IMG/VR virus record: IMGVR_UViG_3300049038_000008
Span: 1-57,935 of that record
Source: a virus
Lineage: Duplodnaviria > Caudoviricetes
Length of the DNA stretch: 57,935 bases
Strand: one strand, 5' to 3'
Shown here: one piece after another, positions 2,093-47,512 of the stretch
Layout: every line of letters starts with the position of its first letter
Position numbering within the stretch: position 1 is the stretch's first letter
Made by a program: the position numbers and the translations under genes
The notes under the pieces: model-generated
Databases searched by the model: none
Seen by the model: the letters and a program-made list of their open reading frames with translations, nothing else
Told to the model about the DNA's origin: nothing

Positions 2093-3268
2093 TTATCCGT
2101 TTGAAGCTTTGTCCTTTTCATCCTCTCCGAAGTCCATTGTTAGTAGTTCGGTTGCCTCTTCCATCGTGTCGGCAGTCGGATGCGCGTAAATTAACAAGGT
2201 CGTTTTCTTACTGTGTCCGGTTATCGCCATCACCTGAGATAAGGGGAGCTTCTTATTCACAAGGTATGTTGTCGTGCTATGCCTGATGGTGTGAAAGACC
2301 GCGCCGCCTGTCTTTAACCCGTAATGGATGCCCACACGCTTGCAAGCGTTCCTGTAAGCGCGTCGAATCATTCTGCCAAAATCATTCACAACCTGAGACT
2401 CTGGCTTAAAGACATAGCGGCCCGGATTCTCTACGATTCGTCGTTTCAAAATCTCTGCCACATTGGAGGTGATCGGAATAACCTTTGGTCTATTCGTCTT
2501 GGCGTTCTTGATTGCGAGGTATCCATGTTTATAGCCGATGCCACGTTGAAAATGCACCTGCGATTTTTCGAGCAAGGCAAGCTCCGATATTCGCATCGTG
2601 GTTTCGATACCGACGATCACCACATCACGCGCTAAGGCTCTCCGCTGGCGTTCAGGGAGGTTTGAATCAGGCACGGGGTCTTCTAATGCCTTCACGACCT
2701 TCAATAAATCTTCACGGCTCAATACGACCTCACGACCTTGATGTTGTAGTGGCAATCTCTCATAGTCGGGTGGTTGCCAGTTGAAACCGGGGAAGAGTTT
2801 CGGCGCGGCTCTCAGGCAAGTCCGTATCATATCTAATTCTTTATTGATGGTGTGCGGATGAATGTCGGATTGCAGCCGGGTTGCCTGGTACTCAATAAAA
2901 TGGTTTTCGTTTAGTTTGCGGAGTTCCTTAGAATGAGAAACAGTCTTTAGCCGATTGATGTAGGTTTCAACCTCATTGATGCGCTTCTGGCTTAGTCCTC
3001 TTATGGTTGCTTTTCGCTTCCACGCAGACAACAGGGCATCTAAGGTGATGGCTTCATTCTCATAACCGAGTCGATTCGGGTTGCGCATCAACAATTTGAA
3101 TTTGGCTAGTTCATCTTCGGCTTTTTCTTTATTCTCCCACGTGGCCTTTTGATACTTCTTGCCTTCATATGTCCAACGATAGCCATAGCGAATCAGGCCG
3201 GTTTTCGTCTTGACCTTAATAATATTTGTGCCTTTGTAAACCTTGATGATTTTGACCGCCATAATCAA
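2093..3268 (-). CDS. int: Tyrosine recombinase (phage integrase)
   Basis: Catalytic set TTMRISEL (R), KNAKT (K), HTIRH, TGH, IYAH (Y); 391 aa with arm-binding-like N-terminus. Confidence 0.93.
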   Translation of the reverse strand: MIMAVKIIKVYKGTNIIKVKTKTGLIRYGYRWTYEGKKYQKATWENKEKAEDELAKFKLLMRNPNRLGYENEAITLDALLSAWKRKATIRGLSQKRINEVETYINRLKTVSHSKELRKLNENHFIEYQATRLQSDIHPHTINKELDMIRTCLRAAPKLFPGFNWQPPDYERLPLQHQGREVVLSREDLLKVVKALEDPVPDSNLPERQRRALARDVVIVGIETTMRISELALLEKSQVHFQRGIGYKHGYLAIKNAKTNRPKVIPITSNVAEILKRRIVENPGRYVFKPESQVVNDFGRMIRRAYRNACKRVGIHYGLKTGGAVFHTIRHSTTTYLVNKKLPLSQVMAITGHSKKTTLLIYAHPTADTMEEATELLTMDFGEDEKDKASNG

Positions 3269-6159: not shown

Positions 6160-6341
6160 GCATCTTTAGACCCACAGAGGAACAGCGGCAGAAATGGGAA
6201 CGGGTATTGAAGCTGCAAGAAAGCGGATTCAGCCGAAAGAAAATCGCCGTCATCTTAAATTTGAAGATGCACTCTGTTGACAAGTTTATTGCCAGAGCCA
6301 AACGGCAACGCGAGATTGATACGTCTTGGAAAAGGCGATGA
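6156..6341 (+). CDS. Small HTH protein (sigma70 region 4/LuxR-like)
   Basis: VLKLQESGFSRKKIAVILNLKMHSVDKFIARA pattern. Confidence 0.6.
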   Translation: MSIFRPTEEQRQKWERVLKLQESGFSRKKIAVILNLKMHSVDKFIARAKRQREIDTSWKRR

Positions 6342-6683
6342 TGTTTGAAAAAGCAAAGCGTGAGATTCCCGCACCGATGGCATGAACACCCGTCAGTCCT
6401 TACGCTTTGCAGATTTTTGTGAAGGCATTTCAGGCGGCGTTGGTATATCGGCTAAAACCTGAGCCTGGTGCCTTCACAGACGATAGATATTTGAAATGTG
6501 CTGGCGTGGCGAAACGGTAAACGCATTTTGGCTGCTACATAAAGATGATTGAATCCGTCCCGCGCTCTGATAGTCCTTTAATGGAACATCGCGGTGTAGC
6601 TTACAGGTTCAAATCCTGTCGCCAGCATTTTGCCACTCAACCGTACCCAAAGCAGGGGCCGAGTGTTAGGGGTGGGTGGCGAA
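6340..6683 (+). ncRNA. Structured RNA array 1a: four stem-closed modules
   Basis: Closing stems 6353/6410 GCAAAGCGT:ACGCTTTGC; 6418/6478 TGTGAAGGCA:TGCCTTCACA; 6500/6626 GCTGGCG:CGCCAGC; 6631/6681 TGCCACTCA:TGGGTGGCG; boxA-like TTTGAAA motifs at 6340 and 6486. Confidence 0.65.
6500..6627 (+). ncRNA. tRNA-like RNA (Leu-type body, no canonical anticodon arm, very large variable arm)
   Basis: 7-bp acceptor stem; UG linker; D arm GCG-AAACGGTAAA-CGC; T arm ACAGG-TTCAAAT-CCTGT; discriminator A; 128 nt; no encoded CCA. Confidence 0.75.
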
Positions 6684-6700: not shown

Positions 6701-6904
6701 ATGAAGAAATTTCAAGTCAGTTACAAAAACCTAAATAGCGAAGTCTTCACGGGCTATTACGACGTGCAGGCAAGAACCGACAGCTTGGCAATTGGCAGGG
6801 CTAAAAACCGCTGGATTGAAGATTGGAATTTATCATTCCCGTATAACCCGAATGGTGAAAGCGAAGTATCAAAGGTCGTTTTCGTCATCACGAATAAAGG
6901 TTAA
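6701..6904 (+). CDS. Hypothetical protein embedded in the RNA array
   Basis: MKKFQVSYKNL...; the longer 6545 start runs through the structured RNAs and is unlikely. Confidence 0.55.
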   Translation: MKKFQVSYKNLNSEVFTGYYDVQARTDSLAIGRAKNRWIEDWNLSFPYNPNGESEVSKVVFVITNKG

Positions 6905-6905
6905 T

Positions 6906-7121
6906 GCTATTTGAAAAAGTTTGGCTGCCGCATTGAGGGCACGGGATAAGACGGTCAATTGACTGGCTTCTGCGCCGGATTTGTAATCTGGGTCACGCCG
7001 ATACCGTGAGCGACCTGAACGGCAGCCAATACCCCTTGCGCTCTTCACCCGTTTGCGAGTCTGAAAGTCCAAAGCGAAAGGTGAAATTTCCCGCATAAAT
7101 CTCCAGGGGGTGGAGGCGCAG
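6906..7121 (+). ncRNA. Structured RNA array 1b: two multibranched modules
   Basis: boxA-like GCTATTTGAAAA at 6906; TTGGCTGCCG(6921):CGGCAGCCAA(7029) enclosing CACGG:CCGTG and an anticodon-like hairpin; TTGCGC(7036):GCGCAG(7121) enclosing TTCACC:GGTGAA and CTCCA:TGGAG. Confidence 0.6.
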
Positions 7122-7135
7122 AGATTAGAGAAAAG

Positions 7136-7756
7136 GTGAATATGGAATATCACAAAATTGAAACGCTTTATGAGCGTGATGAAAAATTCAAGGTTCAACC
7201 AGGGGTGTTTAAGAATCGCACCTACACGCTACTTAAAGAGTGGTGGTTTACCGAAAAGATTGACGGCACCAACATTCGCTGTAACTGGAATGCCGCCGAT
7301 AAGAAAGTGGCATTTGGTGGGCGAACCGACAACGCACAAATCCACGCTGACCTAATTAGATGGCTCTATGAAAACATCACAGTGGAGAAAATGACAGCCC
7401 TTTTCCCTGAAACAAATATTGTCCTCTACGGTGAAGGCTACGGCGCAGGGATTCAAAAAGGTGGACTCTATAGCCCTGTTAAAAAGTTCATTCTCTTTGA
7501 TGTGCTGGCAGATTCAAGATGGTGGCTCAATTGGGAGAACACTGTTGACGTTGCGAATAAATTGGACATTGAAGCCGTTCCATTTATCGACGTGATGACG
7601 CTTGAGGATGCCACGGAGTTTGTACGGCGTGGGTTCTATTCAAAATTAGGTGACGGCACAATGAAGGCTGAAGGTGTGGTTGGTAGACCAGCAGAAACGC
7701 TATTCGATAAGAAAGGTAGTCGGTTAATTCTCAAACTGAAGACAAAGGATTTTTAG
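7136..7756 (+). CDS. RNA ligase, Rnl2-family adenylyltransferase domain
   Basis: YHKI, motif I TEKIDGTN, LYGEGYG, FILFDV, AEGVVGRP, ILKLK. Confidence 0.85.
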   Translation: MNMEYHKIETLYERDEKFKVQPGVFKNRTYTLLKEWWFTEKIDGTNIRCNWNAADKKVAFGGRTDNAQIHADLIRWLYENITVEKMTALFPETNIVLYGEGYGAGIQKGGLYSPVKKFILFDVLADSRWWLNWENTVDVANKLDIEAVPFIDVMTLEDATEFVRRGFYSKLGDGTMKAEGVVGRPAETLFDKKGSRLILKLKTKDF

Positions 7757-14186: not shown

Positions 14187-14384
14187 ATGGCTATAAAACG
14201 CAATGCGCAAGTTTATAAAGTGAAGGCAAAAATTCAACGTGATGGAATTGAGGATTACTGGCTTAGAGTCGGAACAGCCGCAGAGTGTGAAGGCGGGAAA
14301 ATAATTATTACGCTTGATGCGCTTCCATTGCATTCAAAAGGCGTATTGATGCTTTTCCCTAAAGATGCAGAAGGGGAAGTTTAG
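14187..14384 (+). CDS. Conserved small phage protein
   Basis: YWLRVGTA...ITLDALP pattern; AGGTG RBS. Confidence 0.6.
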   Translation: MAIKRNAQVYKVKAKIQRDGIEDYWLRVGTAAECEGGKIIITLDALPLHSKGVLMLFPKDAEGEV

Positions 14385-14436
14385 TACTGAAGTAGCCACC
14401 CACCCCGGCAGCGGGCGGCGAGAGAGAGGGAGAAAG

Positions 14437-15510
14437 TTGATAAACTTTGACTTAGTACAAAAAGAAATAGAAACCGGCTACATCGCGGTACAACGCCACC
14501 CGACTGAGAATCTGCGAATCCTGAACTACACGGCAAAGGCGCAGTATGACCAACGATGGACTGATGAGGTGAAAATATGTCGTGGTCTTATCGTTGACGG
14601 TGATAATCAAATCGTGGCGCGACCCTTTGCAAAGTTTTTCAACGCTGACCAACACCAACGCTCTGACCTCGTTTGGTCAAAGCCCTTCACTGTGACCGAA
14701 AAGCTAGACGGCTCATTAGGGATACTCTACAAGACGGCGAACGGGTTGTTCATTGCGACGCGGGGTAGTTTTACGTCCGAGCAAGCAAACAGAGCAACCG
14801 AAATTCTGCACGACAGATACCTTGATATTGTGGTGCCTGATGGACTCACGCCGCTATTTGAAATCATCTATCCATCTAATCGAGTCGTGGTTGACTACGG
14901 CGACCTGAGCGATTTGATTTTACTGACGGTGATTGATAATCAGACCGGCGCTGATGCAGCCTGTAGCCCACAGGAAGCGGCGAAGCTCATCAATTGGTCT
15001 GGCAGGGTGGCGCAATCGTATCCGATTGAATGCAAGCCAACTGATGTCATTGCGGCGCTCGGTTTGCCGCAGGATGGAAGCGTGGAAGGAATCGTTTTGC
15101 GGTTCGATTACCCCAAAGGTCAACACACGCGCATTAAGGTTAAGACCGACGAATACAAGCGCCTTCACAAACTAATCACGGGCGTCAATGCGCGGCATAT
15201 CTGGGAAGCGTTGCGCGATGGCTTACCGCTGGAGCCGCTTATTGAGCGTGTGCCGGATGAGTATTATCAATGGGTGAAGGCGACAGAGAAAGAATTGCGG
15301 ACGGCCTATGCCGAAATCGAAATGCTTTGCCAGTCTGATTACAAAGGACTGAGAAAAGCGATTGCGCAATACTTTCAAACCTGTGCTCATCCAGGCGTTT
15401 TGTTTTCTATGCTTGATGGCAAGGATTACAGCAACCATATTTGGAAGCAAATCAGACCACAGGCTGCACGGGCTTTTAGGTGTGATGGCGAAAGCGAGTC
15501 CACCCCATGA
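14437..15510 (+). CDS. T4 RnlA (Rnl1)-family RNA ligase
   Basis: ILNY, CRGLI, ARPFAKFFN, motif I EKLDGSL, ATRGSF, FEII, EGIV, IKVK; TTG start after GGGAG. Confidence 0.9.
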   Translation: MINFDLVQKEIETGYIAVQRHPTENLRILNYTAKAQYDQRWTDEVKICRGLIVDGDNQIVARPFAKFFNADQHQRSDLVWSKPFTVTEKLDGSLGILYKTANGLFIATRGSFTSEQANRATEILHDRYLDIVVPDGLTPLFEIIYPSNRVVVDYGDLSDLILLTVIDNQTGADAACSPQEAAKLINWSGRVAQSYPIECKPTDVIAALGLPQDGSVEGIVLRFDYPKGQHTRIKVKTDEYKRLHKLITGVNARHIWEALRDGLPLEPLIERVPDEYYQWVKATEKELRTAYAEIEMLCQSDYKGLRKAIAQYFQTCAHPGVLFSMLDGKDYSNHIWKQIRPQAARAFRCDGESESTP

Positions 15511-18433: not shown

Positions 18434-18476
18434 AACCCGATAGATTGGAGAGATAATCTCCGCTGTCGGGTTTTTT
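18434..18476 (+). terminator. Intrinsic terminator-like hairpin in the portal leader
   Basis: AACCCGATAG:CTGTCGGGTT stem with inner GGAGA:TCTCC, followed by a T run. Confidence 0.65.
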
Positions 18477-18526
18477 GCATTTTAGGAGTAGCAAAATGCA
18501 GATAACGGTTCCGGCAAATTAACAAT

Positions 18527-21880: not shown

Positions 21881-22951
21881 ATGGCAAACCAAGTATTGTA
21901 TGGATTCTACAATCTCCGTGACCTTCTTTCACAGCGGGTCACTGACAGTTTAATTCCGCAGGTCAACGCCGCGATTGACGCAACATTGGCAGAACATAAT
22001 CGGCAGATGGCAACACTGCTTAGTCTGTTTGTTCAAAACACCACAGAGTACAAAATCCGTTATCGTTCAGCAGCGGCAAAGCGGTTGCAGCCCTTGGATG
22101 AGACAGGGCGTGCGCGTCCGACAAAACGGGCTGGCTACTATGAAGTTGCGTTCCCGATTCAAGATGCCGGTGATGCGTTCGGGCAGGATTATGTCACTCG
22201 AACCAAGATGACCGTTCAAGAGGTCAATGATTGGCTGAGTGAAACCCTTATTGCTGATCGGCGCTGGATGCGTGACCACATCCTGTCTGCCCTCTTCACC
22301 AATGTCACATGGACATTTCCCGACCAACAGTATGGTGACTTGACCATTCAGCCATTGGCGAACAATGACGGGGTTACTTATCTGGTGCAGGCGGGTGCTG
22401 ACGCTGGCGCACAGGCCACTCATCACATCGGGCAGGCAGCGGCTATCGCAGACGCAACTAATCCCTACCCGACACTCAAGGATTTGTTAATGAACAAACC
22501 TGAGAATGGCGGTCAGGTGATTGCTCTATTGCCCACAGGATTACGAGCCACAACCGAAGCCCTGGCGACATTCAAAGAGGCGCTTGACCCGAACATTCAA
22601 CCCGCAAGCACGGCAAGTACGCTTGTCGGTTCGCTGAATGTGCCGGTCCCTGGAACGGTGATTGGCTATGAAACTTCAGGTGTTTGGTTGGTTGAATGGC
22701 CGTCAATGCCTGCGAATTACATCATCGCTGTAGCGACAGAAGGACCGCGACCCTTAGCAATGCGTGAGCATCCAGAGGCCGAATTGCAAGGGTTCAGGCG
22801 AGTTGCCGAGCGTAATGATTACCCCTGGTACGAGGCTCAATATGTGCGTCGTGCAGGCTTCGGCGCGTGGAATCGCGTTGGTGCGGCTGTCATTGAAATC
22901 TCCGATGCTTCTTATGACATCCCGACCAACTACGCGGCACCGATGCCCTAA
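21881..22951 (+). CDS. Major capsid protein
   Basis: 356 aa; strong GGAGG RBS; position in the head module. Confidence 0.85.
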   Translation: MANQVLYGFYNLRDLLSQRVTDSLIPQVNAAIDATLAEHNRQMATLLSLFVQNTTEYKIRYRSAAAKRLQPLDETGRARPTKRAGYYEVAFPIQDAGDAFGQDYVTRTKMTVQEVNDWLSETLIADRRWMRDHILSALFTNVTWTFPDQQYGDLTIQPLANNDGVTYLVQAGADAGAQATHHIGQAAAIADATNPYPTLKDLLMNKPENGGQVIALLPTGLRATTEALATFKEALDPNIQPASTASTLVGSLNVPVPGTVIGYETSGVWLVEWPSMPANYIIAVATEGPRPLAMREHPEAELQGFRRVAERNDYPWYEAQYVRRAGFGAWNRVGAAVIEISDASYDIPTNYAAPMP

Positions 22952-41931: not shown

Positions 41932-42222
41932 ATGAAAATCATCTTCATCGCCTCCATCATCCTTTTCCTCATCTCCGCCATAATGGACTATCGCTCAAGT
42001 CTTGGGGATTTTGCCGAAGCAAATAAGTTGGTACGTGGGAAGGATGGCCGCATATCCAAGCCGAAGTTTTTCATTTATGTAGGTGTTGCCTTGGCTTTTG
42101 CTGGCGTGGCGTTTGTCTTCGCAAAGAGTTTGGTGATTGGCACCATCATCATGGTCGTGGGTGCAGGCGCACACCTGTGGGCTGTGGCTCACAATGCCAG
42201 GGTGAAGCGAGGTGAAAAATGA
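41932..42222 (+). CDS. Small three-TM membrane protein (holin candidate)
   Basis: 96 aa; three hydrophobic segments; basic C-terminus. Confidence 0.55.
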   Translation: MKIIFIASIILFLISAIMDYRSSLGDFAEANKLVRGKDGRISKPKFFIYVGVALAFAGVAFVFAKSLVIGTIIMVVGAGAHLWAVAHNARVKRGEK

Positions 42223-42530
42223 GAGTGAATGTGAATTGCCAGCACTCCTATTTCATAGAAGTTTTTCTTGACGGCAAGAAGCTAACTACCTGTATTGAGG
42301 CCGATGATAAAGAGGGCTATGTGTGGGTGTTGGTCGGTGAGAATAACAGGGGACAATGGGCGGCATTGGCTCATCCCGGCGACTTTATTTGGGATGAGTA
42401 TATTGTGAAGCGTGCCACAGGTCGGGTTGAAATCCGCTTCCAACCTGATGCGCCGGTTTCAGAAGAAGAGATGCGCGAGGATGCAGAGAAGTATTGTGTG
42501 CCAATCAGGGTTCACCAGTTGGTGCAATAA
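42219..42530 (+). CDS. Hypothetical protein
   Basis: VFLDG...CIEADDKEGYV...GRVEI pattern; GAGGTG RBS. Confidence 0.65.
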   Translation: MRVNVNCQHSYFIEVFLDGKKLTTCIEADDKEGYVWVLVGENNRGQWAALAHPGDFIWDEYIVKRATGRVEIRFQPDAPVSEEEMREDAEKYCVPIRVHQLVQ

Positions 42531-42533
42531 CCC

Positions 42534-42606
42534 TTTCGCGCCAGCCGTCAAGGGGGCAAAAGAGCCGGGCACAAGTAGCGGCTTTTTTAGCAGGGTTGGC
42601 GCGAAG
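42534..42606 (+). ncRNA. Stem-closed RNA module enclosing a terminator-like hairpin
   Basis: 13-bp stem TTTCGCGCCAGCC:GGTTGGCGCGAAG around GAGCCG..CGGCTT-TTTT. Confidence 0.5.
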
Positions 42607-42640
42607 CATCAATAACAGAGTGGGGAGTGGAGAAAAGTAA

Positions 42641-43222
42641 GTGATGCCAGGAAGCAATATCAGAACAGTGTGTGACGCAGACCACGAGTGCTATTTATTA
42701 GCCGTGGATGATGATGACGCCATTCTTGACATACTCGGTGAAATCTTTACACCGCAAACCGGCATCACGCTGTTAAAGGCCACCTCATTAACTGAGGCGC
42801 TGGAGGTTATCAGCACAACGCCAAAGATCGAAATCATTTTGTTAGATTTGCGCCTGGGCGATTCTGACGGCATCGACACATTGAAAGTCGTGGTGGAGGC
42901 AGTGAACGGGCGCACAGCAATAATAGCGATTTCAGGCTCACACGAATTGGAGGATGAAGCTGGTAAGAATGGCGCAATTGATTTCTGGGGCAAGCCGCTA
43001 CTTCAAATAGATATGATCGGCAGGGTGAAGTTTGCCATTATGAACCAGCGGAAGATTAATCATCAGATTCATCTATCTGAGGACTTAAAGCGGGAGATTG
43101 CCGAGATTCAAGCCAAGTTGGAAGTCAGGCCCACACAGAGGGATTCAGAAGCCATAGAGAGGCTTTCCGTGATGAGTAAGAAGTTGGATAACTATGCCGC
43201 TGTACTAGGAGGAGGTCATTGA
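42641..43222 (+). CDS. Orphan response regulator (REC domain plus coiled coil)
   Basis: LLAVDDD; IILLDLRLGDSDG (phospho-Asp); IIAISG; GAIDFWGKP. Confidence 0.9.
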   Translation: MMPGSNIRTVCDADHECYLLAVDDDDAILDILGEIFTPQTGITLLKATSLTEALEVISTTPKIEIILLDLRLGDSDGIDTLKVVVEAVNGRTAIIAISGSHELEDEAGKNGAIDFWGKPLLQIDMIGRVKFAIMNQRKINHQIHLSEDLKREIAEIQAKLEVRPTQRDSEAIERLSVMSKKLDNYAAVLGGGH

Positions 43223-43570
43223 TTGACTACCGAACAAATATACGTGGGCATACTTATAGCCATCCTCTCACTGATCGGTTCAATCATTGGCTCCAATCTG
43301 ATGGTCGAACGCTACAAGCGGAAAACGAAACTGGAAGATGACCGGAATCTTGCCGACGATGAGATAACCAAAGAAGAGATTGTTGGTCAGAGAGAGTTAG
43401 CCAGGGACATAAGAGAGGACGCTAAGGAAATTCGGCAAATTGAGAGGGTACTGAGAGAAGAGCGGACAGCGGATAAGATTACTATTGCGATTCAGAAGTT
43501 GCAACTTGAGGAAAAGGATAAGCGGATTGCCGCTTTAGAGTCCGAGTTAAAACGTAAGGGGGGTAAGTAA
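43223..43570 (+). CDS. Single-TM coiled-coil protein (holin-like)
   Basis: N-terminal TM then charged coiled coil; GGAGG RBS; TTG start. Confidence 0.6.
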   Translation: MTTEQIYVGILIAILSLIGSIIGSNLMVERYKRKTKLEDDRNLADDEITKEEIVGQRELARDIREDAKEIRQIERVLREERTADKITIAIQKLQLEEKDKRIAALESELKRKGGK

Positions 43571-43588
43571 ATTCTATGAGAGGTCAGA

Positions 43589-43879
43589 ATGAGAAGACAG
43601 TCTTCAAACGATTCGTGGGACATCCCCCTACTCGGTATCGTTCTATTCTTAGCCATCCTCTTTTATCACTGGCGGGAGAACAAGCAGGAAGCCGTCATTA
43701 TTGACATTAAGAAAACGGTTGATGAAAACAAAGAGGATGTAAGAGCGATGAAAGAATCTTTTGTGCAGGCAGAAGTGAAACCCCAACCTCCACCCAAACC
43801 TCGCAGGGTTAAGGTGAAGCCCAAGCCCAAACGTATCAGTCAGGATTTTGCCAATGGAGATTATTCAAAGGACAACTGA
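43589..43879 (+). CDS. Single-TM protein with Pro/Lys-rich tail
   Basis: IPLLGIVLFLAILFY; KPQPPPKPRRVKVKPKPK. Confidence 0.6.
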   Translation: MRRQSSNDSWDIPLLGIVLFLAILFYHWRENKQEAVIIDIKKTVDENKEDVRAMKESFVQAEVKPQPPPKPRRVKVKPKPKRISQDFANGDYSKDN

Positions 43880-43882
43880 GGA

Positions 43883-44413
43883 ATGAAAAAACTAACCATC
43901 ACAATCACCGTCGTCATGCTTTTATTCGTGTTGGCCTTTGCACAGCGTAAGCGCAAGCCAAAACCACGCCCACGGCCAAAGCCTGCACCGACTAAACCGC
44001 TACCAGATTTGCCGACACCCAAAAACTTTGGCAACTGCGCCTCTGCTAATTTCCCCGCAAAGTGCGCCATTGTGGGAACAACCTGTGTGCAGGGTTCAAC
44101 CAATGAAGGCTGTTTGCTCGAAGGTGATAATTGTACCAACTGCTACCGTGGAAGCCCAACCCCACAGCCAAAACTACAAGCCGCCAAGAATGATTGGCAA
44201 GGGGCGATTCTTGGCAAGTTTGTTAAGGGTGCGGGGTTTGTTGTTGATGTGCCAGGGGCTTGGGGTAAGAAGGGGATTAGATCGGGCGATGTGATTACAT
44301 CGGTTGATGGAACGCTCATAGACTCAGCAGAGACTTTGCTCAAACTTTTGCCGGGGTTTTATAAGGCAAGAAAATTCGTTGTGGTGCAAACGAGAGAGGT
44401 AGCGGTGAAGTGA
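43883..44413 (+). CDS. Secreted protein: signal peptide, Pro/Lys linker, 6-Cys module, PDZ-like domain
   Basis: MKK...LAFA|Q; six Cys within about 40 aa; GIRSGDVITSVDG PDZ signature. Confidence 0.7.
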   Translation: MKKLTITITVVMLLFVLAFAQRKRKPKPRPRPKPAPTKPLPDLPTPKNFGNCASANFPAKCAIVGTTCVQGSTNEGCLLEGDNCTNCYRGSPTPQPKLQAAKNDWQGAILGKFVKGAGFVVDVPGAWGKKGIRSGDVITSVDGTLIDSAETLLKLLPGFYKARKFVVVQTREVAVK

Positions 44414-44571
44414 AAATCAAAAAGCTTGATTTGAAAGACCCCAAAGCAAGGGCGGAATATGAGCGCATCTTGAAAGAGGTGAGCAAGGAAACTCAACCGA
44501 TGGCAGATGCTATCCGTGAATCACAGCGCATCACGGCAGAGGATTTAGCCGTCACGATAAATGCTAAATAG
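44410..44571 (+). CDS. Small hypothetical protein, 53 aa
   Basis: Manual translation MKIKKLDLKDP...AIRESQRITAEDLAVTINAK; GTGA overlap. Confidence 0.55.
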   Translation: MKIKKLDLKDPKARAEYERILKEVSKETQPMADAIRESQRITAEDLAVTINAK

Positions 44572-44829
44572 CTCTTTGACAATTTCGGCAACCACCTGTC
44601 CTCCGAAGTAAGAGATTAATGCAGCCTATGGGCTTGGTTGCCGAAACTTTTTCGTGAATGAGCAACCGCTGCTTTGACGGTTATCAAGGCCGCCTCTTAT
44701 TAAGAGGGCTAAGTGAAATTAGACACGAATTGCGCTCATTCACGATTGATGTTGGCCGGGAGTTTGTCACAGGGGCGACGATGCTCTCGGCCTTCACCCC
44801 GCCTGATGCCGGATTAAATTCAATGTCAA
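44571..44829 (+). ncRNA. Structured RNA array 2: boxA plus three stem-closed modules
   Basis: GCTCTTTGACAAT at 44571; stems TTTCGGCAACCA:TGGTTGCCGAAA (44583-44646), TCGTGAATGAGC:GCTCATTCACGA (44652-44745), TTGATGTTG:CAATGTCAA (44746-44829). Confidence 0.7.
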
Positions 44830-44858
44830 GGGAGATGGCGTTGGGCGGGGAGGTTATT

Positions 44859-45200
44859 ATGCGAGTAAGCGAGAGACAACCAGCGAGAAGCCGGGGCAAC
44901 TACTACTGCGTGGACTGTGGCATCCCTGTGACGTTTCAAGCTCAACGGTGTAAGAAGCACTACTTGAAAACCAAGTTGGTGGTGAATACCAGTCTGAATG
45001 CTGTTGAGCGGCGGCTAAAGAGTATGCCAAAGGATTTGCAAGCAATCGTTCTGCGGATCGCATCTCGCTATGAAATGAAATCGGTGTTTACCAAAAGAGC
45101 CATACTCTTGGAGGCAATTGAGGTGGTGCAGGCGGCTGTCAGGTGTCAGGGTCGGTGTTGTGCGGGGAAAAGTCTGAGTGAAAGGTTAGAGGGGCTGTGA
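44859..45200 (+). CDS. Hypothetical protein with CxxC...CxxH Zn finger
   Basis: Start re-set to ATG 44859 after GGAGG; CVDCG...RCKKH. Confidence 0.65.
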   Translation: MRVSERQPARSRGNYYCVDCGIPVTFQAQRCKKHYLKTKLVVNTSLNAVERRLKSMPKDLQAIVLRIASRYEMKSVFTKRAILLEAIEVVQAAVRCQGRCCAGKSLSERLEGL

Positions 45201-45215
45201 AAGGGAGAAGAAGAA

Positions 45216-46217
45216 ATGAATTTTAACAGGGAGGCATTTTTTAAGAGTTATAGGAAAGCGTTTGGCAGACTCACGCAGTCACAAGTTTCAGGCATTGAAG
45301 ATTTGCTTGATTTTATTGAAGCCGATGAGGCGTGGGGCGATTCCGTGATCGATGTTCAACAGGTCAGTTATATGTTGGCAACAATTAAGCATGAATGCGC
45401 TGATAAGTGGAAACCTATAAATGAGTATGCTAGTGGCGCTGCTTATGAAGGACGCAGAGATTTAGGCAATACAAAGAAAGGTGATGGCGTTCGGTTCAAA
45501 GGCCGGGGCTATGTGCAGATCACGGGTCGCACAAATTACACCACGTTCTCAAAGATTACCGGCGCAAACCTTGTGGAATTTCCTGAGACTGCACTATCCC
45601 CGCCAATCAGTTATCACATCGCCAGCGAAGGGATGAGGCGCGGCTTGTTTACTGGTAAATCGCTTGATGATTATATCAACGAAGATAAAACAGATTTCTA
45701 CCAAGCGCGGCGAATCATAAACAAATTAGATAAAGCCAAACTAATTGCCAGCTATGCGGTATTGTTTGAAACCATCTTAGGCGATGCTTTGACTGAAGGG
45801 CAGGAACCATTGGCGGCGGAAGCTAATGGAAACGGTTACTCTTCTTCTCCGCCTGCCCTTCAACCAGAGTCACAGATACCCGCTCCAGTCCAAACAGTAG
45901 AGCAAGGCGCAACAGGCGTTCAACTAAATCAGCCCACTTTGCCTGTGGTGAGCAGCGCCTTCGATGAACCCGTGAAAATCGCAAAAGGCAAATCCACCGA
46001 CCTACTCAACTATCTAATGTCTGCCTCTGGCATCGGCTCCATAGTGGCCTTCTATCAACAGAACCCAATGCTGACCATATTCTTTGCCTGCATCGTCGTG
46101 GTGGCGGTACTAACAGTCGTCATAGTTGTCCATTTGCGGAAGATGAAAGAGGCTGAGACGAAATCCGACCCTACTAAATATTCGATTCAGTTTTCTAATG
46201 AGGTGAAGGCACCATGA
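45216..46217 (+). CDS. Endolysin, glycoside hydrolase family 19, with C-terminal hydrophobic segments
   Basis: YMLATIKHE, YEGRRDLGN..GDG.RFKGRGYVQITGRTNY, ARRIIN; Pro/Gln linker; TM tail. Confidence 0.9.
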   Translation: MNFNREAFFKSYRKAFGRLTQSQVSGIEDLLDFIEADEAWGDSVIDVQQVSYMLATIKHECADKWKPINEYASGAAYEGRRDLGNTKKGDGVRFKGRGYVQITGRTNYTTFSKITGANLVEFPETALSPPISYHIASEGMRRGLFTGKSLDDYINEDKTDFYQARRIINKLDKAKLIASYAVLFETILGDALTEGQEPLAAEANGNGYSSSPPALQPESQIPAPVQTVEQGATGVQLNQPTLPVVSSAFDEPVKIAKGKSTDLLNYLMSASGIGSIVAFYQQNPMLTIFFACIVVVAVLTVVIVVHLRKMKEAETKSDPTKYSIQFSNEVKAP

Positions 46218-46465
46218 AACTTGTTTACATCCGATGGAACGACGCCGGTGGCGAGTACCAGAAATGGATGTATGGTGACGGCCTGGATGTTCGTTTTGAA
46301 CTACAGAGCGCCGGAATATTGGTTTACGAAAACAAGGAAGTCATCACCATTGCGATGGATTTTGACGGCGAGAAGTTCAGGGATGTTGCAAGCGTGCCAA
46401 AGGTGAACGTACTAGAGATTAAATATTTTGAAGTGAAAGGGAGTAAGAGATATGCCAAGCCGTAA
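46214..46465 (+). CDS. Conserved small phage protein
   Basis: LVYIRWNDA...SAGILV pattern; ATGA coupling. Confidence 0.65.
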   Translation: MKLVYIRWNDAGGEYQKWMYGDGLDVRFELQSAGILVYENKEVITIAMDFDGEKFRDVASVPKVNVLEIKYFEVKGSKRYAKP

Positions 46466-46700
46466 AATCTTAATCATATTATCTAGGCCAGGTGGCTACA
46501 AGTATTTGAAGACCCGTGAAGAGTGCGCCGAGAAAACATTGGAAAATGCCAAACGCCTGGGCTATCGCGTAGCCTCTCGTAACGACCCCGGCATAACTGA
46601 GCCATTGACAGAAACATTCTATTTGTCGGTGGAGTCGGCAAAAGCGGCGGCTGAGAGTGCCGGTTATCGCGCCTTCACGGTGCAGAGTTTGCGAGGGTAG
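46452..46700 (+). CDS. Hypothetical protein
   Basis: ORF track; GGGAG RBS. Confidence 0.55.
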   Translation: MPSRKILIILSRPGGYKYLKTREECAEKTLENAKRLGYRVASRNDPGITEPLTETFYLSVESAKAAAESAGYRAFTVQSLRG

Positions 46701-46703
46701 CTT

Positions 46704-46889
46704 ATGACTTGCGGCATCTGTGGTCAAAAGACTAATCGCATTCATAAGAATGTTGCGGAGTGCCTGAAATCCATGTCGGCAGATTTGAACCGCCTGCACG
46801 AAAAACTTGATGCTTTGCCAACTTGCTATTGCGAAGCGCCCAAAGATGAGGCCGGTGTTTGCGAACGAGAAAAGGCGGTGACGGGATGA
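46704..46889 (+). CDS. Small Cys-rich protein
   Basis: CGICG...H....C; GAGG RBS. Confidence 0.5.
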   Translation: MTCGICGQKTNRIHKNVAECLKSMSADLNRLHEKLDALPTCYCEAPKDEAGVCEREKAVTG

Positions 46890-47162
46890 ACGAAAAGGAA
46901 AGCTTCTTTTGGGATAACTTTGAGGCCATCATGATTGTCGTCTTTGTGTTGATCGTAGCGGGGCTGATTACCTGGGCGGTGACGTGGTGAGCAAATACCA
47001 TATCAGTTTCATCTATACGGAAAAGACCAAGGACGGGGAAACCGTGCTGAGGTCTAAGCAAAGAGTCGTAGAGGCGAAAAGTATGAATGATGCGGTAGAC
47101 AGATTGAAGAAAGAATTTGGCGAACCCCTCCGCATCACTTCTTGTCATAAGGAAGGGTAGGG

Positions 47163-47369
47163 GTGATTACTGGACTACGGAAATTCATCATCACCCTTTT
47201 GGTGATTGCCATTGCCAGCACGCTCGTATGGATTGGCAAGATTACCAGTGATAACTATGTCACGCTGATTTCTCTTATCGTGGGGGCTTATTTTACGGCG
47301 AATGTTGGCTCGAAGCTGGCGGATAAGGTTGCCGTCACAACAAAAAGTCAGGAGGTAAAACAACCATGA
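47163..47369 (+). CDS. Holin candidate (2 TM)
   Basis: RKFIITLL...GKI....YV.L...VGAYF.ANV pattern. Confidence 0.65.
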   Translation: MITGLRKFIITLLVIAIASTLVWIGKITSDNYVTLISLIVGAYFTANVGSKLADKVAVTTKSQEVKQP

Positions 47370-47512
47370 TTGCACTAATCATTTGCATACTCGGATTAAT
47401 CGTCTATGCCATTTCCGCGGGAAGAAACGCAACAGCCGCGGAGATCGGTAGAATAGCTTTTGCTATGGGCCTATTGGCGTGGCTGCTGACGGGTGCGAGG
47501 GTGCCGGTATGA
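47366..47512 (+). CDS. 48 aa two-TM membrane protein
   Basis: Manual translation MIALIICILGLIVYAISAG...EIGRIAFAMGLLAWLL; GGAGG RBS. Confidence 0.6.
   Translation: MIALIICILGLIVYAISAGRNATAAEIGRIAFAMGLLAWLLTGARVPV

Follow-up and report, generated by a model that had tools for sequence, protein, structure and literature searches.

The window examined here, a stretch of 57,935 bases of DNA, is the whole of the IMG/VR virus record IMGVR_UViG_3300049038_000008, which has an estimated completeness of 54%. Its lysis region, located 3′ of the tail genes on the same strand, contains a gap of ~290 nt (44572-44858) between an open reading frame (ORF) of 53 amino acids (aa) and the genes for a 113-aa protein and the endolysin. 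The gap is filled on the + strand by four abutting modules, each separately closed by a stem, and a boxA-like word stands directly before the first of them. The word and modules, referred to here as the cassette, and the adjoining genes are as follows.

44410-44571, + strand: 53-aa ORF upstream of the cassette, with a TAG stop at 44569-44571
44571-44582, + strand: boxA-like word GCTCTTTGACAA, single-stranded, directly 5′ of module 1
44583-44646, + strand: module 1, a perfect 12-bp closing stem (44583-44594 with 44635-44646) around a 40-nt interior (z, −3.03)
44652-44745, + strand: module 2, a perfect 12-bp closing stem (44652-44663 with 44734-44745) (z, −4.82)
44750-44796, + strand: module 3, a bulged hairpin of 10 + 5 bp with three G.U pairs (z, −4.26)
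44797-44850, + strand: module 4, a 15-bp stem (44797-44811 with 44836-44850) with four G.U pairs (z, −3.85)
44859-45200, + strand: 113-aa zinc-ribbon-like ORF starting at ATG 44859, with GGAGG at 44849-44853
45216-46217, + strand: endolysin with a GH19-like domain and a C-terminal membrane segment (PHROG 181, E = 2.6e-33)

The structure of the cassette exceeds chance. The + strand of 44560-44870 folded with an energy of −120.4 kcal/mol (z = −5.76); 100 dinucleotide-shuffled versions gave −94.1 ± 4.6 kcal/mol, and not one of them equalled it. In a GC-corrected scan of ~2,890 segments, the 120-nt segment starting at 44741 ranked first among structured + strand sequences, and perfect 12-mer inverted repeats with a spacing of 30 to 130 nt numbered five in the window against 0.47 per shuffle. 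The original prediction, made from the letters of the DNA, had described three modules with closing stems of 12, 12 and 9 bp and an array ending at 44829. The first two stems were exact, while the third (44754-44763 with 44783-44792) has 10 bp, two of them G.U, and is prolonged by 44764-44768 with 44777-44781; the proposed end cuts through a fourth hairpin, module 4. The interior of module 2 is multi-branched and cloverleaf-like. One of two inner hairpins proposed there, CCTCTT:AAGAGG (44693-44698 with 44702-44707), occurs in the minimum-energy fold, while the other, AACCG:CGGTT (44664-44668 with 44678-44682), is present as sequence only, the fold favouring a rival pairing, GCTTTGA:TCAAGGC (44671-44677 with 44684-44690). 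A pseudoknot formed by these two pairings was dropped as the connecting loops are too short. The gap has 80 G and 65 C among its 287 nt.

Words from 44300-45300 were shared with 24 sequencing runs of 22 studies, 23 from soil and one from a rhizosphere, one of these runs possibly being the source of the record. No RNA data set was among them. Four of the 24, from four other soil studies and designated X2, X3, X4 and X5, were used for comparison; the other 20 had small word shares. The cassette was present in all four, with the block 44583-44853 nearly unchanged and the flanks differing. X2 was identical over 44653-44853, X3 had three substitutions and one deletion over 44611-44817, and X5 had one substitution and a 13-nt hairpin deletion over 44516-44861. 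In X4, a 3.4-kb contig with a depth of 20, only 1 of the 20 itemised substitutions fell in 44647-44850 as opposed to 19 in 44851-45169 (Fisher p = 0.0015), a difference weakened by six further X4 differences that are not itemised, since placing all of them in the RNA part raises p to 0.30.

The five substitutions within the cassette, 63% of whose bases are paired, were all structure neutral. Positions 44668, 44692 and 44782 are unpaired, with T44782G of X4 falling in a bulge, while A44702G and C44756T give wobble pairs, the latter converting a C-G pair of module 3 to U.G in X3. The G44668T change of X5 disrupts AACCG:CGGTT and not GCTTTGA:TCAAGGC. Larger changes affected whole elements: in X4 and X5, deletions of 8 and 5 nt excised the inner hairpin 44693-44707 of module 2, of which X3 had a remodelled form; X4 had lost 6 nt at 44607, in the interior of module 1 and upstream of ATG 44658, with the closing stem intact; and X4 had an insertion of 171 letters placed precisely at the junction of modules 1 and 2, as well as 530 letters replacing 44368-44582. 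In X2 another upstream flank was joined to module 1, still ending in ...GTTCTTTGAC, such that TCTTTGAC was kept. As judged from these alignments, related soil phages inherit and exchange the cassette (~44574-44853) as one unit. Absence of conserved structure in relatives had been named beforehand as a finding that would count against a structured RNA; in these close relatives the structure was kept (4/4).

Searches elsewhere gave little. Among phage GenBank records, blastn matched 17, all of them Mycobacterium phage lysin A genes covering 4 to 5% of the query and none extending over the gap. Within IMG/VR, single-protein searches (113-aa ORF, endolysin and an 850-aa tail protein) and an alignment of the 113-aa protein found no usable relative, two cassette DNA patterns gave 0 matches each, and 23 records found via the capsid protein (47 to 60% identity) had no DNA match. 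The same 113-aa alignment retrieved eight AT-rich zinc-ribbon/HNH-type loci from JGI metagenomes, with 24 to 44% identity over parts, which were judged unrelated. The surroundings of GH19 endolysins at 80 genome and 80 IMG/VR loci contained no array and no neighbour protein, and at the closest GH19 locus (L132) the endolysin lacks a preceding gap. The proteins of the closest relatives (P0002, P0051 and P0057) are on Logan or JGI contigs.

A frame beginning at ATG 44658 is open to 45200 (180 aa), and the public gene call for the record (P0001, 156 aa) starts inside the gap, as would be expected if this were a real gene whose structure is incidental. P0002, the only relative of the 113-aa protein (66% identity, 113 aa), has the same Met start as ATG 44859, and this codon has GGAGG 5 nt upstream, while nothing resembling a Shine-Dalgarno sequence precedes ATG 44658. 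The 67-aa extension (44658-44858) had no family match. Indels within the frame (−8 and −5 nt in both X4 and X5, a net loss of 13 nt in X5, −1 nt in X3, and +4 nt in X4 shortly ahead of ATG 44859) break it in relatives, and because of these the ATG 44658 ORF was ruled out; we regard a gene at this position as exceedingly improbable. Translation from ATG 44658 had likewise been named in advance as counting against an RNA element. On the comparative sequence evidence, the gap 44572-44858 is non-coding and the true downstream start is ATG 44859.

The − strand of this region also folds (z = −5.2) with an energy 16 kcal/mol worse than that of the + strand. The + strand fold includes nine G.U pairs, all in modules 2 to 4 (modules 3 and 4 contain seven), each of which would be an A-C mismatch on the − strand, and the A44702G and C44756T substitutions change Watson-Crick pairs to U.G, such that pairing is kept on the + strand only. 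The G.U pairs and the two wobble-preserving substitutions favour an RNA read from the + strand, in the same direction as the genes on either side. The expectation of an untranslated, strongly structured sequence on the + strand with the late genes and ahead of the endolysin was borne out.

These same observations bear on a DNA-level role, in which palindromic cassettes would serve for recombination or module shuffling between phages, or for protein binding, in the manner of T4-type promoter-stem-loop cassettes or miniature mobile elements. Such a role would fit the two perfect 12-bp inverted repeats, which have no wobble pairs, the variation of relatives by whole modules or hairpins and swapped flanks, and the behaviour of the neighbouring 113-aa gene as an indel. 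It does not account for the seven G.U pairs that modules 3 and 4 need or for the two substitutions that keep pairing only as + strand RNA. There was, moreover, no second copy of the cassette in the record; the modules share no sequence with one another, with a second array described below or with the rest of the record, and hence have no repeated ends or copies of the kind expected for a mobile element; and 401 genomes of the probable host class gave only chance-level matches of 21 to 36 nt and no cassette copy. A DNA-level element is, in our view, distinctly improbable.

The position of module 4 raises another alternative, a cis-acting leader that controls when or how strongly the next gene is translated. 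Module 4 would mask a portion of the ribosome-binding site, and whether this site opens would depend on the modules upstream or on a bound factor. The target would be the 113-aa ORF, or the endolysin where this ORF is missing. GGGGAGG has its first four G, 9 nt before ATG 44859, paired within the stem of module 4 as part of the 3′ arm (44836-44850), the cassette directly precedes a gene for lysis, a process in which timing matters, and the CCUCC of module 1 (CCTCC at 44600-44604, as originally predicted) could pair with GGAGG. Set against this, GGAGG (44849-44853) is mostly outside the stem; a CCUCC 5-mer is expected by chance and pairs with GGAGG over only 5 bp, and the anti-Shine-Dalgarno role proposed for it was dropped for these reasons and as the small hairpin is lost in X4. 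The cassette of X2 is followed by a different sequence with its own purine-rich site, and in X4 the GGAGG region is altered (A44851G, G44853A and an extra ATAG, a gain of 4 nt just before ATG 44859) while the modules are fixed. These downstream changes in X2 and X4 indicate that the conserved unit is the modules and not a pairing with the start site. Four autonomous modules over 270 nt also far exceed what occlusion needs, and a leader of this type is considered unlikely.

In one form of X2, position 44853 is followed by CTTTTGAAAAAAGGGAGAAGACAA, which resembles the endolysin leader of the window (45193-45218). Because of this junction the 113-aa ORF looks like an optional insert, apparently absent from this form, in which the cassette would abut the endolysin leader.

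No known RNA class was matched. Rfam gave only a tRNA at 6500-6627 when the whole window was searched at the gathering score, and 0 matches in 44300-45100 at E values of up to 10. ARAGORN found no tRNA in the cassette, either by default or with introns allowed, and the only match at a relaxed threshold was on the opposite strand. The cassette is a real structured phage RNA element without a known family.

The boxA-like word was examined separately. GCTCTTTGACAAT occupies 44571-44583, its first G also ending the TAG stop codon of the 53-aa ORF, and the word is followed by 276 untranslated nt. Originally noted as close to the rrn/lambda boxA, it matches 11 of 12 positions of GCTCTTTAACAA, the E. 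coli-type consensus. Two sites in the window (26092 and 44571) match this consensus with no more than one mismatch, and nine do so with up to two mismatches against 5.7 expected; by itself, the boxA-like word is not above chance. For comparison with the probable host class, rrn leaders were collected from six loci in four genomes reached through endolysin loci and from a further 30 loci (one among the six) of a 121-genome class sample, in which 54 genomes had a 16S match. A pattern of [CT]GAT[CG]TTTGAAAAC or GGTTCTTTGAAA[AG]C was present 50 to 160 nt before 16S in 33 of 35 usable leaders. The core of the 44571 word, TCTTTGA, is the same as that of this Blastocatellia-class rrn boxA.

Words of this type recur in a second region, array A (6.3 to 7.1 kb), which contains the following features.

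6340, + strand: word GATGTTTGAAA, an exact host-type boxA adjoining a TGA stop at 6339-6341
6353-6410, + strand: stem-closed module, after GATGTTTGAAA
6418-6478, + strand: stem-closed module with a perfect 10-bp closure (z, −4.60)
6486, + strand: word GATATTTGAAA, an exact host-type boxA variant before the tRNA-like gene
6499-6628, + strand: tRNA-like gene with a large insertion (Rfam tRNA, 42.1 bits, full model)
6906, + strand: word GCTATTTGAAA, a one-mismatch host-type copy just past a TAA stop at 6902-6904
6921-7029, + strand: stem-closed, cloverleaf-like module of 109 nt (z, −2.88)

The layout of a word followed by a module or tRNA-like gene occurs three times in array A, with two of the words being exact host-type copies. 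Folded in its entirety, with the ORF that it contains, array A did not reach significance (z = −0.83). The tRNA-like gene has a canonical T arm (GGTTCAAATCC) and an insertion of 39 to 56 nt that replaces or extends the anticodon and variable region; ARAGORN missed it by default and, with introns allowed, called a tRNA-Ser(GCU) with a non-canonical 39-nt intron at 40/41. Array A and the 44571 cassette were confirmed to have the same design, a word plus a stem-closed module, in unrelated sequence, as the original prediction had suggested for the 6.3-7.1 kb array.

Perfect matches to the host-class pattern GWTVTTTGAAA numbered exactly two in the window, at 6340 and 6486, both directly before array A modules or the tRNA-like gene. 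The looser G[AC]T[ACG]TTTGA has six occurrences on the + strand. At four sites (6340, 6486, 6906 and 44571) it stands 1 to 5 nt before a module or the tRNA-like gene, and three of the four have a stop codon 0 to 3 nt upstream; this motif was widened after the phage words had been seen, and the count is partly circular. That circularity does not affect the two exact host-pattern matches, nor a test with TTTGAMA, which precedes 3 of the 18 inverted-repeat arms at a distance of no more than 15 nt (p = 5.5e-5 for random placement) and is not enriched by itself in the window (37 against 31.7 expected). As a boxA, the 44571 word is weakly supported: the label rests on its recurring position, the support from its sequence being weak.

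Of 12 rrn loci from the probable host class that were checked, at least 10 have boxA as the 5′ base of a long 16S leader-spacer helix. The loci with this helix belong to Acidobacteriota (L093, L099, L101, L104, L097, L110, L112, L116, L090 and L091), and a boxA complement, ...CTATCTAGTTTT[CG]A..ATC, lies ~75 to 125 nt past the 16S 3′ end in them. By analogy, this arrangement, in which a processing helix has boxA at its root, comes nearest to the cassette as a model. In both, a boxA-type word stands at the 5′ root of a stem closing an untranslated structured RNA, and the boxA found at the base of the host helix has two exact core copies before modules of array A. The phage modules differ in being 40 to 110 nt in length and not rRNA, and the phage words are unpaired, 1 to 5 nt outside the stem, with the 44571 word deviating at two positions.

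The original prediction had also offered an antitermination element of the put or nut type. The likeness to a lambda nut site consists of a boxA-like word in a phage transcript with 11 of 12 positions of the E. coli consensus. Unlike lambda, there is no boxB-like hairpin at 44571, where the 12-bp stem of the 64-nt module 1 follows the word at once, and Pfam scans of 10 + 10 + 10 + 52 ORFs found no N or Q antiterminator, nor any RNase III, reverse transcriptase, Ro/TROVE or RtcB protein. A lambda-type nut site is not supported on these grounds. A terminator in need of read-through was not seen either: the + strand of 42000-47500 had only one weak terminator match, inside module 2, and no terminator-like site was found on this strand in 44900-47500. 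All four modules lack a U run on their 3′ side. Clear intrinsic terminators with U runs occur on the + strand near 18434-18477 and 42556-42590 (within 42535-42605), showing that the host and phage employ terminators with a U tract, a feature missing from the four modules. One of these two terminators lies between the terminase and portal genes, and the other is nested in a 12-bp outer stem at the tail/lysis junction. A + strand sigma-70-type promoter was also not found in 42000-47500, TTGACA at 44576-44581 being without a −10 partner.

An RNA of the put (HK022) or EAR type, which would bind polymerase, independently of protein or with an accessory protein, and enable it to pass later terminators, would match an intergenic location in an operon ahead of late genes and the presence of several stable stem-loops. 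The clear terminators are elsewhere, not in the 44900-47500 interval downstream, and Rfam was negative even at the permissive threshold. In put and EAR elements the entire structure is conserved, whereas modules 1 and 2 have interiors altered by indels. We consider this type of element very improbable.

The explanation preferred here, though only tentatively, is that the cassette is a processed, possibly Nus-protected, untranslated RNA within the late operon. Polymerase would exit the 53-aa ORF, translation would halt at the TAG at 44569-44571, and the single-stranded G-C-U-C-U-U-U-G-A-C-A-A would emerge first, as a host-type boxA loading NusB/NusE (S10) and partners. The Nus-loaded, ribosome-free polymerase might then escape Rho over ~290 nt and reach the endolysin. 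Each module would self-close co-transcriptionally once its 3′ arm had been made, and the closing stems (12 bp in modules 1 and 2, 15 bp with a bulge in module 3 and 15 bp in module 4) would be candidate substrates for a double-strand-specific RNase of the RNase III type. Cutting would yield small stable RNAs, which may be active after release, and would sever the late mRNA ahead of the 113-aa ORF and the endolysin. NusB-NusE are described as reading an 8-nt boxA core (PMC3177189), and PMC7862264 places boxA before long non-coding RNAs and CRISPR arrays, where it keeps distal parts transcribed.

Several observations weigh against the processed, Nus-protected RNA. With respect to the word, the 44571 sequence is two mismatches off GWTVTTTGAAA and outside the top 20 sites in the window for a weight matrix of host rrn boxA, and the best site, at 6339 (TGATGTTTGAAAAA), scores 15.5 bits, equal to the mean maximum of shuffles. 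Host rrn boxA is paired in a helix, whereas the phage words have no nearby complement. A G-rich gap would be a poor Rho loading site, stems of 12 bp are short for RNase III, and the two perfect 12-bp stems without G.U would equally fit a DNA-level repeat. With respect to conservation, depth was only 2 to 8 for X2, X3 and X5, the relatives are very close, such that low divergence could reflect recent exchange and not selection, and no double (compensatory) change was present in the compared variants. The assignment of the host, on which the host-type comparison depends, stands on endolysin similarity alone.

Other systems share parts of this design. The T4 species 1 and 2 RNAs are small stable RNAs in a phage tRNA region; they resemble the cassette as stem-closed untranslated RNAs of a phage operon, and array A has a tRNA-like gene, while the cassette has no tRNA, lies in the lysis region and shows no sequence or Rfam relation to them. 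Phage T7 has RNase III processing hairpins between genes. Modules 3 and 4, as intergenic bulged hairpins of ~15 bp in a long phage transcript, are similar to these, unlike the multi-branched modules 1 and 2 with their 12-bp closing helices. A boxA upstream of CRISPR arrays, giving long untranslated arrays Nus-dependent protection from Rho, is described in PMC7862264, which cites Stringer et al. That arrangement likewise places boxA before serial short structured untranslated units; the cassette differs in having no repeats or spacers, in lying inside an mRNA operon without its own leader and promoter, and in extending over only ~290 nt.

A broader proposal is that the phage miniaturises the host rRNA-operon design, a boxA tag plus stem-closed RNAs, at two loci with unrelated cargo, as a general means of transporting RNA cargo within mRNA operons, and that its boxA-tagged RNAs, nascent or released, could soak up NusB/S10 and depress late host rRNA synthesis. 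It is known from work on lambda that boxA RNA competes for NusB. We consider this proposal quite unlikely.

The host is probably an Acidobacteriota bacterium of the class Blastocatellia. This class is proposed because of endolysin similarity alone: the best matches among species-representative genomes were contigs of Pyrinomonadaceae and Blastocatellia metagenome-assembled genomes, with 58 to 60% identity. The GH19 signal of the endolysin is weak. Two metagenome proteins, P0051 and P0057, have 72 to 82% identity to its C-terminal linker and membrane part, and their catalytic domain is PF00959 lysozyme, not GH19-like, indicating a domain swap between close relatives. Upstream of the cassette, the 53-aa ORF has a weak match to PHROG 1373, "transcriptional regulator" (E = 0.0011), and a family search with the 113-aa ORF gave no match.

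Other genes in the window include those for a primase/helicase, terminase, portal, capsid and a long tail module, together with the following.

2093-3268, − strand: integrase
7136-7756, + strand: first RNA ligase (PF09414, E = 6.8e-20)
14365-15510, + strand: second RNA ligase, T4 Rnl1-type (PF09511, E = 3.7e-16)

The first ligase gene is ~500 nt downstream of the tRNA-like gene and the second is ~7 kb further on; the scanned ORFs included no polynucleotide kinase/phosphatase. The two ligases suggest a theme of RNA repair or splicing, which may be tied to the tRNA-like gene and the RNA arrays. The capsid protein (21881-22951, + strand) has hundreds of soil-metagenome relatives with 55 to 87% identity. 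Five capsid-related IMG/VR records, fetched whole, have only head genes (portal, decoration and capsid) in common with the phage, and because of this its genome is a strong mosaic.

To our knowledge, phages of Acidobacteriota are almost unstudied, and we know of none of their RNA elements described in Rfam. The cassette is compact, clearly non-coding, conserved in several soils and located right before the lysis enzyme. Should the boxA tag prove functional, Nus-factor antitermination, already described for rRNA operons, lambda and CRISPR arrays, would also serve phages in carrying untranslated RNA through protein-coding operons, and the combination of a word and a stem-closed module would provide a handle for searching metagenomes for such cargo RNAs. 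If the tag is not functional, the cassette would still be a new structured phage RNA, with lysis timing or mRNA processing as candidate roles.

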